A program made the position numbers and the translations under genes. This document shows, piece by piece, positions 2,692 through 10,062 of a DNA stretch of 10,062 nucleotides. A model generated the notes under the pieces. It made no database searches and had not been told where the DNA came from. It worked only from the letters and a program-made list of their open reading frames with translations. This stretch comes from a plasmid. Each line of letters starts with the position of its first letter. The first letter of the stretch is position 1. The stretch lies in the sequence record NZ_CP087609.1. One strand, given 5' to 3'.

Positions 2692-3423
2692 TCACTCCGT
2701 TGTCATAAATTTAAAGCACGCGAACAGCCTCTCCCGGTCCAGCTCCACCGTTTTGCGGGCCTCGCCGGTCTGTGGATTCACGATTTCATCCACCGCCAGA
2801 ATCGCCCGCTGTACCCGGACAAGCGTCGGCCGGTCAGGGCAGATGTACCAGATTTCATCGATGCCGTTCGCCCGGCGGTTGAACAGATACCCGGACACCA
2901 CTTCCTGATACCGCCTGCGGCTCTTGACGGTGCGCTCTACCTCAAATGCCACCGTTCTGCCGTCCAGCTCCGCCAGCGCGTCCGGCACTTTCATCCCTTT
3001 CAGGGCCATACGGTGCAGGTACCGCCAGCCGGTGGCCCCCCGGCCCTCCATGGAGAGGCGCAGGGACTGCACGGCCAGCCGGTGCGGCAGCTGCGCCGCC
3101 GACACCCTTGACGGCTGAAACGGAATAACGTCCGTCAGCGGCTCGTCCTCGTCGAACGAGAACGCCACCCCGTGCGGCGTCAGCCCCCACACGCTGACCT
3201 GACGGCCGTCAACCGGGTATTTCGCCCGGACCAGCAGCCCTTTCGCCACCAGACTGTCCAGGAAGCGGTAAACCGGCTGTACCGCCGCAATCCCCAGCCG
3301 TCGCGCAACCAGCTCCGCCGTGGAACACAGCTCTTCCCGCAGCCAGCGCAGGGTCAGCCGTGTTTTCTCCGCGTTCCGCGCCTGCCGCTTCGCGTGGCTG
3401 ACGTTGTACTGCTCCAGTGTCAT
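2692..3423 (-). CDS. mobC: MobC-like MOBC-family relaxase with an N-terminal winged-helix (243 aa).
   Basis: The 243-aa ORF has its ATG overlapping the stop of the upstream coupling-protein gene (TGATG). It carries a winged-HTH-like segment (ELVARRLGIAAVQPVYRFLDSLVAKGLLVR) and a D...E-x-K-like acidic/basic cluster (ELDGRTVAFEVERTVK). The gene order and the sizes 654 and 243 aa match my recollection of the CloDF13 mobB-mobC arrangement. The family assignment comes from memory, not from a search. Confidence 0.6.
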   Translation of the reverse strand: MTLEQYNVSHAKRQARNAEKTRLTLRWLREELCSTAELVARRLGIAAVQPVYRFLDSLVAKGLLVRAKYPVDGRQVSVWGLTPHGVAFSFDEDEPLTDVIPFQPSRVSAAQLPHRLAVQSLRLSMEGRGATGWRYLHRMALKGMKVPDALAELDGRTVAFEVERTVKSRRRYQEVVSGYLFNRRANGIDEIWYICPDRPTLVRVQRAILAVDEIVNPQTGEARKTVELDRERLFACFKFMTTE

Positions 3424-5387
3424 CAGTAAAGCCCCGCAAAATCATCATCCGCTTTTGGTCCGCCGCCGTCGGCCGGAGGCAGGTACTCCGCCAGCGGGTC
3501 CGTTTTCGCCAGCACCGGGAAGGTTTTCAGCGAAATTTCCCGGCGCTCAACCCGCAGCGGGCTGCTGAACGCCAGCCGCGCCACGCCCAGCCCGGTCATC
3601 ACCGCGAACCCGTCAGGCAGGTGTTGCAGGGTGTTCACGTCAAACAGCGGCCGCGCCTCCTTCTGGATGAAGCTGTCGCCGCTGATGTGCTCCACGTTCC
3701 CCGCCTCCCGGCTGGCCCGGCGGCGCTCCACGTCCACCCGGATCTCCCCGGTCTGGCCCGCCGCCCACTGCGCGGACTCCTGGCTGGCCGCGCGATAGAA
3801 CCAGCGGATCGGCGTGTTATCCAGTACCGTGGTTTTCACAAAATCAGCGGGCAGATCCTGCCCGCACTGACCGAAGTCGCCCAGCGACTGGTGCGCGAGC
3901 AGCAGGTTGCAGTCCCGGCTGCGCAGCGTCCCCAGCGCGTTCAGCACGTACTTCGACAGCAGATATTTAATCTCATCGAGCATGATGCTCGCGTGCGGCC
4001 ACCTCCGGAACTCATCCCGCGCAATGATGATTTGCGCGCAGCGGGCAAACAGCATCTTCTGCACCCGGATCACCGCCTCATCGTCCATCGAGCCGATGAC
4101 GTACAGGCAGCCGCCGCCGTTGATTATCCCCGCCACATCGATACCGCTGTCCGTCTGCAGGACGCTCAGGTCGGCCACGTTCTCCAGCTTGGTGATCAGC
4201 CCCTTCACGTCCTTTTTCAGGGCCTCCGGCAACGCGTACGCCGCCGCCAGCACCTGCTGAATGTTTGCCCCCTGCGGGAACTGCTCCGCAATCAGCTTCG
4301 CCGCTTTCTGCTCGCTGATGCGGTAGTGGTCCGCCACGTCGCCGGTCTCACTCAGGTTAAACCCGGCAACCAGCAGATTCTTCAGGGCGTACTGGTCGAG
4401 ATCGCGGAACAGATTCAGCTGCGCCGGTTTCCCCGGCCGCAGATCCAGCAGGGTGAAGTCCGGGCAGTGCGCCCGGAAGACGTGCGGCGCCCACGCGTCC
4501 CCTTTGGGGTCGAAGTACACCACAGCGTCCCCGAAATCGCGTACGCAGCGAATGAGCGCGTTGGTGGCCATCGCGCTCTTGCCGCTCCCGGGCAGGCCGA
4601 GGATCTGAATATTGGTCTTGCGCCAGGTATCACGAGGGACCAGCACCGGCTGGCCCTGCTCATCCTTACCCAGAAACACCGCCTGCTGTTTCCGGGCCTG
4701 CTCCGTGGAAAAATCGGCCAGCGCGTTAACCGGTACCGGCTCCCCGAAATGCAGGTGGCGGACGTCTGTCATTTCTCCGGTCCGCTGGCTGCTGCGCCGG
4801 CTCTCCTGATTCAGTTTCGCGTTCACCGCCTCGTCAGCGGCCGCAAAATGACCATCAAGCAGCAGGAACGCCAGCAGCCGCGCCAGAAGGACGCCGGCGA
4901 CAAGCCCTCCGGCACACCAGGCTATCCCGAACAGGTTAGCCGGCTGCAGCAGGTAATAATCTGCGTTCGCATAGAGGTCCGGGCGCAGGACGGTTTCTCC
5001 CCAGCTCTCGATAAACACGGCGACAACCAGCCCCCCCAGAAGGGCCAGACCGGCAGCGCCGGTCAGCCAGTACGCGTAGTTCCAGACATGTCGCCGTGCC
5101 CTGACCATCCGCCCGGGTGAATCCAGCGAGGCCAGCACCGAAAATGGCACAGTCCGGTTATTATCGCGCTTATAGCGATCGGCATACTCCCGCCGCGCCT
5201 TATGGCTCAGCCCCACAAAACGCATTCGGCCGGCCCAGAGTTCAGCCAGACCGAAAAACAGGCCGATAACCAGAAAAAAACCGGCCAGACTGTAATACTC
5301 CCGGTACAGCCAGCTGACCCACGGGTAAATCTGCCGGGCCAGCTCCGGGATATGCCACTGCCAGGCAAGCGAATCCGTATTAAACAT
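3423..5387 (-). CDS. mobB: Type IV coupling protein (VirD4/TraG/TraD-like, CloDF13 MobB-like), 654 aa with N-terminal transmembrane segments.
   Basis: The N-terminal 150 aa contain at least two long hydrophobic segments. A Walker A motif ILGLPGSGKS sits within a T4CP-like core (VLVPRDTWRKTNIQILGLPGSGKSAMATNALI...). A strong RBS AAGGAGAGAG precedes the ATG at 5387. Confidence 0.8.
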   Translation of the reverse strand: MFNTDSLAWQWHIPELARQIYPWVSWLYREYYSLAGFFLVIGLFFGLAELWAGRMRFVGLSHKARREYADRYKRDNNRTVPFSVLASLDSPGRMVRARRHVWNYAYWLTGAAGLALLGGLVVAVFIESWGETVLRPDLYANADYYLLQPANLFGIAWCAGGLVAGVLLARLLAFLLLDGHFAAADEAVNAKLNQESRRSSQRTGEMTDVRHLHFGEPVPVNALADFSTEQARKQQAVFLGKDEQGQPVLVPRDTWRKTNIQILGLPGSGKSAMATNALIRCVRDFGDAVVYFDPKGDAWAPHVFRAHCPDFTLLDLRPGKPAQLNLFRDLDQYALKNLLVAGFNLSETGDVADHYRISEQKAAKLIAEQFPQGANIQQVLAAAYALPEALKKDVKGLITKLENVADLSVLQTDSGIDVAGIINGGGCLYVIGSMDDEAVIRVQKMLFARCAQIIIARDEFRRWPHASIMLDEIKYLLSKYVLNALGTLRSRDCNLLLAHQSLGDFGQCGQDLPADFVKTTVLDNTPIRWFYRAASQESAQWAAGQTGEIRVDVERRRASREAGNVEHISGDSFIQKEARPLFDVNTLQHLPDGFAVMTGLGVARLAFSSPLRVERREISLKTFPVLAKTDPLAEYLPPADGGGPKADDDFAGLY

Positions 5388-5399
5388 GCAATCTCTCTC

Positions 5400-5940
5400 C
5401 TTCAGACGACGGGTTTACCGGCGTGATGCGCAGCCCCCGCTGCACAAGCCGCGGACATGCCCCAAGGCATGGCGGCGGCGGTCACGTCCGTGGTGATTGC
5501 GTTCAGCTTTCACCGCGGAGGCCAGCCTCTTTCCGCCCCATGCGGAAAAGGCGCAGCCCCGGAGGAACAACGAGCACGCCCCAGCGTGTGAGAGGAAAAG
5601 GCGGCACCCCAGTGCGGTCTTTTCCGGTGTTCCGGCCCCCGTCAGAGTTCGCCATAGCGAGCGGCTGACCACCCGCAAAATCAGGAGCAGCTTTGCTGCT
5701 TCGTCAGGTGCGTCCAGCACCGTGGATTTTTGTGGGTGGTCAGGCGTGAGCCTGACGGGGGCCGGGTGAATTTCTGGCGTGGCCGGCGTCCAGCCGGACA
5801 GAGCCAGAAAGAGGGGAAAAGACCGTGCGTCGGTGGCGTCCAGCCAGCGTAAGCAAGGTCTTTTCCCCTGAAGTCAGCCACGCCCCAGCGGGGATGACTT
5901 GCATTTCTCCGCAAGGAGAAAAAAGCAACAGAGATAGGTT
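5400..5940. other. GC-rich non-coding block upstream of mobB carrying hairpins and short direct repeats. It is a candidate oriT and leader of the mob operon.
   Basis: I find no protein-like ORF here. A hairpin at 5528-5550 reads CTTTCCGC-cccat-GCGGAAAAG. A direct repeat GAAAAGGCG(C/G)CA(G/C)CCCC occurs at about 5545 and 5596. GCGTCCAGC occurs three times, at 5710, 5786 and 5836. A hairpin GTCAGGC-gtga-GCCTGAC at 5739-5756 is preceded by TGTGGGTG. A 12-bp inverted repeat GGGGAAAAGACC/GGTCTTTTCCCC (5813-5824 and 5858-5869) encloses one GCGTCCAGCC copy. Confidence 0.4.
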
Positions 5941-6673
5941 AACGTAAAATGTTCAGCGAAAAACCGACATGGTTCACCTATCCTGATAATTGATCGTCAG
6001 GGAATAGAAAGACTTAATCAGGGGACAATATCCCACATCAGCGCGTCCGGTGACCGTCTTGCAGGTGCCGGGGAAATTGCGCCTCCTCGCTCACTCGGTC
6101 GCTACGCTCCGGGCGTGAGACTGCGGCGGGCGCTGCGGACACATACAAAGTTACCCACAGATTCCGTGGATAAGCAGGGGACTAACATGTGAGGCAAAAC
6201 GGCAGGGCCGCGCCGGTGGCGTTTTTCCATAGGCTCCGCCCTCCTGCCAGAGTTCACATAAACAGACGCTTTTTCGGTGCATCTGTGGGAGCCGTGAGGC
6301 TCAACCATGAATCTGACAGTACGGGCGAAACCCGACAGGACTTAAAGATCCCCACCGTTTCCGGTAGGTCGCTCCCTCTTGCGCTCTCCTGTTCCGACCC
6401 TGCCGTTTACCGGATACCTGTTCCGCCGTTCTCCCTTGCGGGAAGTGTGGCGCTTTCTCATAGCTCACACTACTGGTATCTCGGCTCGGTGTAGGTCGTT
6501 CGCTCCAAGCTGGGCTGTAAGCAAGAACTCCCCGTTCAGCCCGACTGCTGCGCCTTATCCGGTAACTTTCATCTTGAGTCCAACCCGGAAAGACACGCAA
6601 AAACGCCACTGGCAGCAGCCATTGGTAACTGGGAGTTCGCAGAGGATTTGTTTAGCTAAACACGCGGTTGCTC

Positions 6674-6703
6674 TTGAAGTGTGCGCCAAAGTCCGGCTAC
6701 ACT
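6674..6703 (+). promoter_or_regulatory. RNA I promoter (-35 TTGAAG, -10 TACACT).
   Basis: TTGAAG at 6674-6679 and CTACACT at 6697-6703 are positionally equivalent to the pMB1 RNA I promoter. The start is near 6710. Confidence 0.55.
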
Positions 6704-6709
6704 GGAAGG

Positions 6710-6815
6710 ACAGATTTGGTTGCTGTGCTCTGCGAAAGCCAGTTACCCGGTTAAGCAGTTCCCCAACTGACTTAACCTTCGATCAAACCACCTCCCCAGG
6801 TGGTTTTTTCGTTTA
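6710..6815 (+). ncRNA. RNAI: RNA I antisense copy-number regulator.
   Basis: ACAGATTTGGTTGCTGTGCTCTGCGAAAGCCAGTTACC...CACCTCCCCAGGTGGTTTTTTCGTTT parallels pMB1 RNA I (ACAGTATTTGGTATCTGCGCTCTGCTGAAGCCAGTTACC...GGTGGTTTTTTTGTTT). It ends in a stem plus U-run terminator. The loop regions differ from pMB1. Confidence 0.8.
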
Positions 6816-6824
6816 CAGGGCAAA

Positions 6825-6853
6825 AGATTACGCGCAGAAAAAAAGGATCTCAA
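6825..6853 (-). promoter_or_regulatory. RNA II promoter (-35 TTGAGA at 6848-6853, -10 TAATCT at 6825-6830, read on the minus strand).
   Basis: The minus strand reads TTGAGAtcctttttttctgcgcgTAATCT with a 17-bp spacer, as in pMB1. Confidence 0.6.
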
Positions 6854-6862
6854 GAAGATCCT
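6837..6862 (-). terminator. Hairpin plus U7 on the minus strand immediately after the lysis gene. It is the likely terminator of the bacteriocin operon and overlaps the RNA II -35.
   Basis: The minus strand reads AGGATCTtcttgAGATCCT followed by TTTTTTT (complement of A6837-6843). The lysis gene stop is at 6873-6875. Confidence 0.45.
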
Positions 6863-6872
6863 TTGATCTTTT

Positions 6873-7022
6873 CTACTGAACCGCGATCCCCGTCAGTTCA
6901 GAGGAGGACGATGGTGCCACCGTTCCGCCCTGAACATCCCGGATATAATTTGCCTGACATGCGGCCAGAAGAAAGCCAGCAACAATCAATATAAAAAGAA
7001 AAATAGTCTTTACCTTTTTCAT
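6873..7022 (-). CDS. Bacteriocin release (lysis) lipoprotein, 49-aa precursor. It is not in the supplied ORF track.
   Basis: My minus-strand translation is [49 protein letters not shown]. The lipobox LLAAC, the mature 28-aa peptide and the overall sequence match colicin and cloacin BRP/lysis proteins as I recall them. An RBS AGGGAAAG precedes the ATG. Confidence 0.85.
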
Positions 7023-9385: not shown

Positions 9386-9631
9386 ATGACGCACCTGAAA
9401 CTGACTCCCGCTGAAGAAAAGCGCCTGGCGGACGCCTTTGTCGCTCAGGCACTGGCCATGGGCCTGAAAGGGAACAAAACGCTGCCAAAGGCGGTAAAAC
9501 AACAGGTGCGGGAAAGGGTGCTTCGTGCCATTCAGGACGAACGTGAAGCCAGGCGGGCGCAGGAAATGCGTCGGGAGAAATACGAGGCTACGGAAACCAC
9601 CTTCACCTGGCAGCCACAGCGCCGCCGGTAA
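9386..9631 (+). CDS. Hypothetical 81-aa basic, helical protein of unknown function.
   Basis: GGAGG lies 7 nt upstream of the ATG. The sequence is rich in A, K, R and E and predicted helical (…VLRAIQDEREARRAQEMRREKYE…). It ends 5 nt before the Xer-site core. I recognise no family. Confidence 0.5.
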   Translation: MTHLKLTPAEEKRLADAFVAQALAMGLKGNKTLPKAVKQQVRERVLRAIQDEREARRAQEMRREKYEATETTFTWQPQRRR

Positions 9632-9636
9632 GGGGT

Positions 9637-9665
9637 ATTTACCATAACGTCGCATTGCCCGCACC
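9637..9665 (-). other. cer-like XerC/XerD plasmid multimer-resolution core site. Candidate accessory sequences, including an ARG-box-like TGCAT-N4-ATGCA at 9767-9780, lie at about 9666-9850.
   Basis: The minus strand reads GGTGCGGGCAA-TGCGACG-TTATGGTAAAT. The XerD arm is identical to ColE1 cer (TTATGGTAAAT). The XerC arm GGTGCGGGCAA can be compared with cer GGTGCGTACAA. By my count the central region is 7 bp. TGCATgcctATGCA about 100 bp to the XerC side resembles an ArgR box. Confidence 0.55.
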
Positions 9666-9904
9666 GCTCAGACGGTCTGAGGGCGTTTCCGGCGGCTACG
9701 GGATAAAACAGGCAACAAACCACCCGGAAAACCGCCGGAAACGCGCCCGGTAAATTGTAACCCGCTGCATGCCTATGCACGCAACTGCATGGCGGGCCGT
9801 TTGGTGTAAAAACGATACGATAAGCCGTGTTTATGTAAATGAACGTGGCCGTAAAGAGTGACAAATATACATGTAACATTTTTTACTGACAGGTCATCAA
9901 CCCG

Positions 9905-10062
9905 ATGCGTTTAATACCCTTTATCCTGCTGGCATTGTGCAGCCCCTTACTCCTGACGGCCTGTAAGCATTCCACCACCCAGCCGCCGAAAATTTATACT
10001 CTGGATAAGTCATCTAAAATCAGTAGCTACGCTGCGGCCATCAAGACCGCTGTTGAAATGCA
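9905..10062 (+). CDS. N-terminal part of a lipoprotein (signal peptide plus lipobox LLTAC). The ORF runs off the window end and continues in-frame into the TolA-III-like ORF at positions 2-214 if the ends are joined.
   Basis: The translation is MRLIPFILLALCSPLLLTACKHSTTQPPKIYTLDKSSKISSYAAAIKTAVEM.. with an open frame to the last base. 'SSYAAAIKTAVE' aligns with TolA '…NNYAGQIKSAIES…', which lies just upstream of the TolA segment matched by the ORF at the window start. The upstream RBS is weak. Confidence 0.6.
   Translation, partial: MRLIPFILLALCSPLLLTACKHSTTQPPKIYTLDKSSKISSYAAAIKTAVEM

Follow-up and report, generated by a model that had tools for sequence, protein, structure and literature searches.

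A very probable CloDF13-type origin of transfer upstream of mobB, and the hairpin-loop pattern it shares with other MOBC elements

What is the function of the GC-rich, repeat- and hairpin-dense DNA that lies upstream of the coupling-protein gene mobB in small plasmids of the CloDF13 family? The sequence considered here (record NZ_CP087609.1; 10,062 bp, hereafter the window) is a complete or near-complete plasmid of that family, a ColE1-type cloacin plasmid, and the region in question is 5400–5940. It lies between the mob operon and a ColE1-type replicon, since mobB, on the − strand, starts at 5387 and similarity to ColE1 is limited to 6077–6960 (blastn, word size 7). RefSeq carries no annotation at this place across hundreds of near-identical plasmids. 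An earlier reading of the letters alone (the sequence-only reading) had proposed a likely origin of transfer (oriT) of unusual architecture.

The sequence-only reading had named alignment to the CloDF13 oriT as one way to check its proposal, and this alignment decides in its favor. Region 5400–5940 is 96.3% identical to 9418–9957 of CloDF13 (NC_002119), which is collinear with the whole window at 93–94% identity. The CloDF13 nick has been mapped to 5'-GGGTG/GTCGGG-3' (Nunez & de la Cruz 2001, as quoted in PMC5935869). This 11-mer occurs once in CloDF13 (9752–9762, + strand), at the position homologous to the nic site listed for the window in Table 1. A landmark singled out from the letters, a 7-bp hairpin preceded by TGTGGGTG, coincides with the experimentally mapped nick sequence: TGTGGGTG occupies 5731–5738, directly before the hairpin, and the nick would fall at the junction of the two. 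The accompanying remark that nic sites of MOBC relaxases are poorly characterized does not apply here, as that of CloDF13 was mapped 25 years ago. Within the window the nick pattern is found only at 5734–5744 and in the opposite arm of the surrounding inverted repeat. The 17 relatives examined among enterobacteria and Aeromonas have the core GG(N)TGGTC of this pattern; a Vibrio plasmid carries GGCTTGGTC instead.

Given the homology to the CloDF13 oriT, the mapped nick sequence at 5734–5744 and the adjoining mobB and mobC genes, the segment from about 5490 to 5900 is very probably the oriT of a CloDF13-family plasmid. By homology, MobC aided by MobB would nick the + strand at the G5738–G5739 step; this point is the base of the GTCAGGC/GCCTGAC hairpin and belongs to the right arm of a composite inverted repeat, about 134 bp in length. 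Two points weigh against the exact placement. The nick position is transferred by homology, with one base differing from the published 11-mer (A5742 for G), and the left arm bears a near-identical nick motif on the other strand, so that this arm, too, may be nicked. For pMET1 and HPI-ECOR31, 'IR2' has been proposed to contain two putative nic sites (PMC2262945). A relationship to the bom region of ColE1 was considered and rejected, because the ColE1 similarity falls outside 5400–5940. Both the oriT and its nick are already known, the nick having been published in 2001, and the copy in the window is a close variant of CloDF13, the MOBC1 prototype.

Could the repeats instead be chance products of a GC-rich spacer, or parts of an unannotated coding sequence? 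The region is indeed GC-rich, and mechanically called open reading frames (ORFs) of 62–101 aa overlap it. But the 9-mer GCGTCCAGC, reported from the letters as three copies, occurs exactly three times in the window, always on the + strand (5710–5718, 5786–5794 and 5836–5844), where shuffling leads one to expect 0.16 copies and none of 200 shuffles reaches three; a copy with one mismatch, GCGTTCAGC, is found at 5499. As single-stranded DNA, the + strand of 5520–5900 has a folding energy of −138.3 kcal/mol (z = −14.1 relative to dinucleotide shuffles), and the − strand one of −114.3 kcal/mol (z = −10.8). The five internal ORFs are without a Pfam match (E ≤ 0.1), in line with the statement that no credible ORF is present, and among relatives the loops are fixed, the stems covary and the indels, judged by eye, apparently do not keep a reading frame. 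Chance and coding are thus refuted by the 9-mer counts, the folding, the pattern of conservation and the Pfam search, leaving them a very small probability.

The individual elements seen by the sequence-only reading are all there, apart from details, and more is present than it counted. The paired repeat holds as GGAAAAGGCG(CA/GC)(G/A)CCCC, at 5544–5560 and 5594–5610, 50 nt apart. The 12-bp stem GGGGAAAAGACC/GGTCTTTTCCCC exists (5813–5824 with 5857–5868), but its loop is 32 nt, not 33, and does not stay open, folding on to an apex GGC-GTCCA-GCC. All three hairpins that had been described are present, yet the minimum free energy fold of 5490–5910 is a row of ten hairpins. Every GCGTCCAGC 9-mer is a stem-loop with a GTCCA pentaloop. 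The inner and outer arms listed in Table 1 together make up the composite inverted repeat.

Table 1. Features of the oriT region and its surroundings (positions in the window; a dot marks features without a strand).
Feature	Position	Strand	Remarks
mobC	2692–3423	−	MOBC relaxase, Replic_Relax, restriction-endonuclease-like; Pfam PF13814, E 6e-22; NCBIfam MobC_subf 247.6 bits (cutoff 200)
mobB	3423–5387	−	type IV coupling protein (T4CP); from the ORF list; Pfam TraG-D_C, E 9e-6; annotated as mobB/TraM-recognition domain in identical plasmids
GTTCA-loop hairpin	5491–5515	+	degenerate fourth 9-mer copy GCGTTCAGC at 5499–5507
CCCAT-loop hairpin	5525–5552	+	3' arm is the first GGAAAAGGCG repeat
CGC-CCCA-GCG hairpin	5574–5589	+	box CGCCCCAGCG at 5577–5586
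14-bp hairpin, CCCA loop	5594–5625	+	5' arm is the second GGAAAAGGCG repeat
Composite inverted repeat, outer left arm	5632–5645	.	pairs with 5752–5765; 14 nt, 100% complementary
Inverted repeat (19 nt), inner left arm	5662–5680	−	second nick-motif copy GGGTGGTCAGC at 5664–5674
Spacer hairpin GGAGCAGC-TTT-GCTGCTTC	5684–5702	.	terminator-like on − strand; CloDF13 clade only
Spacer hairpin GGTGC-GTCCA-GCACC	5705–5724	+	9-mer copy 1 (5710–5718) at apex, 21–29 nt 5' of nick
Inverted repeat (19 nt), inner right arm	5728–5746	+	contains the nick site
nic site GGGTG/GTCAGG	5734–5744	+	nick 5738 / 5739, placed by homology; 10/11 bases match the published nic; G to A at 5742
Nick-proximal hairpin GTCAGGC-GTGA-GCCTGAC	5739–5756	+	begins at the first base 3' of the nick
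Composite inverted repeat, outer right arm	5752–5765	.	pairs with 5632–5645
Hairpin A, stem TTTCTGG...CCAGAAA, apex CCGGC-GTCCA-GCCGG	5771–5810	+	box A GGCGTCCAGCC at 5785–5795, +47 to +57 from nick
Hairpin B (the 12-bp-stem hairpin), apex GGC-GTCCA-GCC	5812–5869	+	box B GGCGTCCAGCC at 5835–5845, +97 to +107 from nick
Hairpin AAGTCA...TGACTT, apex CGC-CCCA-GCG	5871–5900	+	second copy of CACGCCCCAGCG at 5879–5890; homologous hairpin in L004
RNAI	6711–6812	+	Rfam match, the only one in the window

How far does this arrangement extend beyond CloDF13? The comparison set consists of 17 related oriT regions; 14 sequences, the window included, were aligned and four more were scanned for motifs. The alignment holds CloDF13, two divergent CloDF13-family plasmids, the E. 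coli plasmid pSTEC2018_166-d (L004, with another replicon), chromosomal elements of Brenneria and Rahnella, Y. pestis pCRY, an IncY plasmid of E. coli, and sequences of Aeromonas, Arsenophonus, Enterobacter/Citrobacter and K. aerogenes plasmids. Scanned only were a second Enterobacter plasmid (of the K. aerogenes type), IncFIB and 727-kb Klebsiella plasmids, and a V. parahaemolyticus plasmid. Outside the CloDF13 clade, MobC identity to the window falls to 26–31%. The relatives show a common order: one or more CGCCCCAGCG/CCCA hairpins, then an outer and inner inverted repeat with GG(N)TGGTC in both arms, then a hairpin starting from the nick, and finally two GGCGT(C/T)CAGCC hairpins. The architecture that had been called unusual is so only relative to the oriTs of HUH relaxases, and is the norm within this MOBC clade.

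The deeply conserved copies of the 9-mer are those in boxes A and B, two GGC-GTCCA-GCC hairpins 47–107 nt 3' of the nick, which are the most conserved sequence of the cassette; the apex of hairpin B, GGGC-GTCCA-GCCC, is invariant in 11 sequences. The copy between the arms occurs only in the CloDF13 clade and in L004 (there as GCGTTCAGC) and is absent from the pCRY clade. L004 has a perfect GCGTCCAGC in a hairpin loop at the position homologous to the GTTCA-loop hairpin. Box CGCCCCAGCG is kept in nearly all 14 aligned relatives, and is also found in the Vibrio and IncFIB plasmids, while the 14-bp CCCA hairpin keeps its loop on a different stem sequence in L004 and the pCRY clade. Among the hairpin loops of the 14 oriTs, CCCA was counted 32 times and GTCCA/GTTCA 27 times.

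The stems behave differently from the loops. In every clade the arms of the inverted repeat change together, TTTTGTGGGTGGTCAGG, TCAAAGGGGGTGGTCGCG and TTTTGTAGGTTGGTCACG each being mirrored opposite, and equivalents of the outer arms are CACACCGTC/GACGGTGTG in the pCRY-clade rows of the alignment and CCGAAAACCG/CGGTTTTCGG in Vibrio. The nick hairpin shows compensatory variants, namely GTCACGC/GCGTGAC (L004), GTCGCGC/GCGCGAC (L126) and CAGTCG/CGACTG (L131), and the CloDF13 variant has a G.T pair, which allows pairing on the + strand only. Compensatory changes affect 6 of 11 consensus pairs in hairpin A and 9 of 13 in hairpin B across clades, and the strand with the nick motif is more stable than its complement in all 14 sequences, by 6–27 kcal/mol. 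With loops fixed and stems covarying, the evidence from these alignments that selection acts on structure is good but not overwhelming. The covariation comes from few independent lineages (about 4–5 clades), so that the counts overstate the events, and the folding asymmetry of the strands could partly reflect loop or base composition and not selection; both points count against the reading.

Several observations made among the relatives deserve mention. The V. parahaemolyticus plasmid pVa (L134, NZ_CP043423.1; 69 kb, from a shrimp pond) shows the same oriT grammar at 1780–2180 despite 26% MobC identity, with two copies of CGCCCCAGCG, CCCA loops, an inverted repeat with GGCTTGGTC, and GTCCA/GTTCA hairpins; a perfect 23-nt palindrome follows the oriT at 2183–2231. 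In pDD02357-4 (L132, NZ_CP096237.1; 772–1135), an exact 50-bp deletion merges boxes A and B into one GGCGTCCAGCC hairpin, and looks like the result of recombination between direct repeats. The pCRY-clade oriTs (L012, L048, L125–L130) contain four conserved runs of five or six G on the nick strand (GGGGGGAGCC, TGGGGGGC, GGGGGTGGTC and TTGGGGGTTTTGG), which the window has in much weaker form. A preference for G-quadruplex DNA is a property of some coupling proteins (TrwB); a link to these runs is speculative. A profile of GGCGTCCAGC-N30-50-GGCGTCCAGC, run across genome contigs, gave 120 matches of which nearly all are due to chance in high-GC genomes; L044, L056 and L066 were rejected as lying in coding sequence with no MobB or MobC nearby, and the only true relatives were Brenneria L012 and Rahnella L048.

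The sequence-only reading had also spoken of a leader of mobB, which raises the question of whether the hairpins act in RNA. The region would then be chiefly a structured 5' leader or regulator of the mobB-mobC mRNA, working through attenuation, stability or translation control. It does lie directly upstream of the mobB start (5387) and is free of credible ORFs, the mobB promoter must be upstream of 5387, and two terminator-like hairpins followed by T-runs occur in the spacer of the inverted repeat. But no sigma-70-like promoter was found on either strand of 5300–6100, by a standard scan or at a relaxed threshold, and the oriT region matches no Rfam family, so that an explanation by a known RNA is rejected. 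The orientation of the cassette is more telling. In CloDF13, L004 and the L131/L135 clades (K. aerogenes/E. cloacae plasmids), the mob operon lies on the strand opposite the nick strand and points away from the CCCA end of the cassette. In the pCRY, IncY, ICE-like (resembling integrative and conjugative elements) and Vibrio elements (L012, L125–L128, L134), the operon for the T4CP and MobC follows the GTCCA boxes in the direction of the nick strand; nic and the T4CP gene have the boxes between them, here on the coding strand, and relative to the mob genes the cassette has the reverse orientation. The CCCA and GTCCA loops are therefore antisense to the mob genes in some clades and sense in others, and an mRNA element would not survive such an inversion. 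Since the loop code tracks the nick strand and not the direction of mob transcription, and no promoter is seen, the evidence is against an mRNA leader, now a very improbable main role, and for a cis-acting cassette at the DNA level. The term leader is accordingly not retained.

The terminator-like hairpins of the spacer (5684–5724) stand back to back, at 5700–5686 on the − strand and 5707–5721 on the + strand, each followed by a run of T that forms the end of an inverted-repeat arm; the pair is found in the CloDF13 clade only. These hairpins could insulate mobB from RNAII read-through. The mobB ATG at 5387 is preceded by a Shine-Dalgarno-like GGAGAGAG.

A role in replication also has to be considered, in which the hairpins would be single-strand initiation signals (ssi; of the n'-pas, primosome assembly site, or G4 type) that prime the transferred strand or the lagging strand of ColE1-type replication, and not relaxosome sites. 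RNAI is on the + strand, so that RNAII runs leftwards, and the region is just downstream of the ColE1-type origin along the direction of replication; the origin itself we take, from the pBR322 ori sequence, to be near 6222–6226. The exceptional folding of single-stranded DNA, better on the strand to be transferred, would also suit priming, and complementary-strand initiation signals were reportedly described near the CloDF13 origin by van der Ende et al. in 1983. But the ColE1 homology, expected to include the pas-type region of ColE1, stops at 6077, outside 5400–5940, and the hairpin code accompanies mobB and mobC on non-ColE1 replicons, ICE-like chromosomal elements and Vibrio plasmids. Being carried with these genes across unrelated replicons, the code is part of the transfer module. 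Identical loops repeated two to four times are typical of a specific binding protein and are not known as a feature of pas or ssi sites. Priming is an improbable alternative to the transfer role, though possible as a secondary function alongside it, the two roles being compatible.

If the cassette belongs to the transfer module, which protein would read it? In the MOBC relaxase TraX of pAD1, an N-terminal winged helix-turn-helix domain binds five direct repeats 70–120 bp downstream of nic (PMC12857230). The window has the same kind of layout: its composite inverted repeat (5632–5680 / 5728–5765) carries nic in the right arm, and the boxes follow at +47 to +57 and +97 to +107. Residues 22–121 of its MobC give a weak MarR-like match (E 0.013). 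The nic of pAD1 is likewise said, by Francia and Clewell in 2002, to be in or next to a large inverted repeat. Because the layout matches that of TraX, the 9-mers are probably binding sites of MobC or MobB; the suggestion in the sequence-only reading that they are protein-binding sites near nic is supported by this analogy and by two of the three copies being kept down to a MobC identity of 26–30%. The two GGCGTCCAGCC boxes would be the sequence-specific anchor of the relaxosome, and their TraX-like position and highest conservation in the cassette make the putative N-terminal winged-helix part of MobC the likeliest binder, with MobB as the alternative. From the boxes, the nuclease domain would be positioned on the nick and cleave the + strand at the base of the nick hairpin, in the right arm. 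For the mirrored left arm there are two candidate roles, binding of a second protomer or, instead, the second nick site considered above. The CCCA-loop hairpins 5' of the inverted repeat would form a second conserved class of site, with MobB binding, or termination and recircularization, as candidate roles. Against MobC as the reader of the boxes it can be said that they are invariant while MobC diverges to 26%, which could equally indicate MobB or a host factor.

The form in which the boxes would be read is a separate matter, and a plain-duplex reading is a serious sub-rival. Here the boxes would be iteron-like direct repeats for a winged-helix protein, and the hairpin potential incidental or a matter of palindromic half-sites. 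In its favor, the direct repeats bound by TraX are presumably read as duplex, the motif GGC-N5-GCC is a short palindrome in its own right, and within a clade the boxes keep a fixed spacing, which is 42 nt for the pCRY clade and 50 nt for both L004 and the CloDF13 clade. But the stems reach 7–13 bp past the conserved box and differ between clades yet stay paired, the central GTCCA is asymmetric and constant in orientation, and the nick strand folds better in 14 of 14 relatives. We favor, with some reserve, boxes that are read as extruded or single-stranded hairpins, since each box tops a covarying stem and the nicked strand is the better folder in every relative; the duplex form appears distinctly less probable, though far from negligible.

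A wider proposal follows the chemistry of the family. The CloDF13-family nick leaves a free 5' end, without a detected covalent intermediate (PMC6736028, PMC9299015), and for TraX of pAD1 too no covalent relaxase-DNA intermediate was detected (PMC12857230), as for CloDF13 (PMC6736028). Because MOBC relaxases leave such an end, the proteobacterial oriTs of the MobC clade, from Vibrio to Klebsiella, might share a nick-strand hairpin-loop code, with CCCA tetraloops placed 5' of the nick and GTCCA pentaloops in the ~110 nt that follow it, in which the GTCCA hairpins are a non-covalent handle of MobC/MobB on the transferred strand; this is a tentative idea that we hold to be rather unlikely as a whole. 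The GTCCA hairpins, at the leading 5' end, would let MobC/MobB pilot the strand into the secretion channel and find it again for re-ligation, standing in for the phosphotyrosyl link of classical relaxases. If transfer has the assumed 5' to 3' polarity, the GTCCA hairpins and then oriV would enter the recipient first, and mobB/mobC last. Given the inversion of the cassette, the mob genes would thus enter last in one arrangement and first in the other.

The surroundings are those of a very common plasmid type. The small plasmid pH39-4 (10,058 bp, ColRNAI replicon, relaxase MOBC), one example among small Klebsiella and E. coli plasmids, is 100% identical over 5300–6000, and PLSDB holds about 500 records with this segment at an identity of at least 90%, mostly small plasmids of Klebsiella. 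MobB of CloDF13 is both an accessory protein, needed for relaxation, and the T4CP, and relaxation requires MobC and MobB together (PMC7431656). Directly downstream of mobC, an ORF of 176 aa (2155–2685, − strand), 'hypothetical' in related plasmids and without a Pfam or NCBIfam match, may be a third gene of the mob operon. Some 175 bp of AT-richer DNA (5900–6076), from the last oriT hairpin to the start of the ColE1 homology (6077), is kept in CloDF13. The CloDF13 reference record itself (L003, NC_002119.1) is typed 'non-mobilizable' by MOB-suite, and in place of mobB and mobC its annotation gives fragments in the mob region ('Mobilization protein A' and short hypotheticals), presumably through sequence errors of the 1980s; users of this record would overlook the relaxase.

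The identification itself adds nothing new, as the CloDF13 oriT is known and this plasmid is one of ~500 small ones that are nearly identical. Its use lies in exact oriT and nic coordinates, with which annotation pipelines can fill a region that is left blank in a very common family of clinical plasmids. As to how MOBC relaxases recognize, hold and re-join DNA without a covalent intermediate, the comparative result offers concrete targets for mutation, namely loops of invariant sequence (GTCCA and CCCA) whose stems covary and which keep to the nick strand whichever way the mob genes point. The strand-specific hairpin-loop code across the MOBC clade, and its independence from mob orientation, is possibly the under-described part, and the hairpin set may show how this relaxase family recognizes DNA.

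Compared with known systems, the region is closest to the CloDF13 oriT, with which it shares the position between mobB and a ColE1-type oriV, the mobB/mobC genes, the inverted repeat, the three 9-mers and the nick motif at the same place. It differs by about 19 substitutions or indels. One of these, A at 5742, the fourth base 3' of the nick, turns the G.T pair of the nick hairpin into A:T, and the lower stem of hairpin B, a perfect 13 bp in the window, is both shorter and otherwise paired in CloDF13, L133 and L132. Its placement is that of the ColE1/pBR322 bom region (oriT): both belong to small colicin plasmids of the ColE1 type and follow oriV, in the direction of replication, at a distance of a few hundred bp. 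But the sequences are unrelated, the nick sequence differs (as stated in PMC5935869), and the bom relaxase, MbeA, is of the MOBP/HEN type with a covalent 5' link.

With oriT2 and TraX of pAD1 the window shares the restriction-endonuclease-like relaxase family and direct repeats well downstream of nic (70–120 bp in pAD1, +47 to +107 here). But pAD1 has five short repeats and a Gram-positive host (Enterococcus), while here there are two to four hairpin-embedded boxes for which MobC binding is proposed from sequence and analogy. The oriTs of pCRY, pMET1, HPI-ECOR31 and ICEKp1, a group of MOBC conjugative plasmids and ICEs, share the CGCCCCAGCG and CCCA hairpins, an inverted repeat, outer and inner, both arms of which carry GGGTGGTC, the nick-proximal hairpin and, after it, two GGCGTCCAGCC hairpins. 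Their MobC is only ~30% identical, they have no GTCCA hairpin between the arms and a box spacing of their own, and in contrast to the CloDF13 type, which is mobilizable, these elements are self-transmissible (MPF_T, mating pair formation type T).

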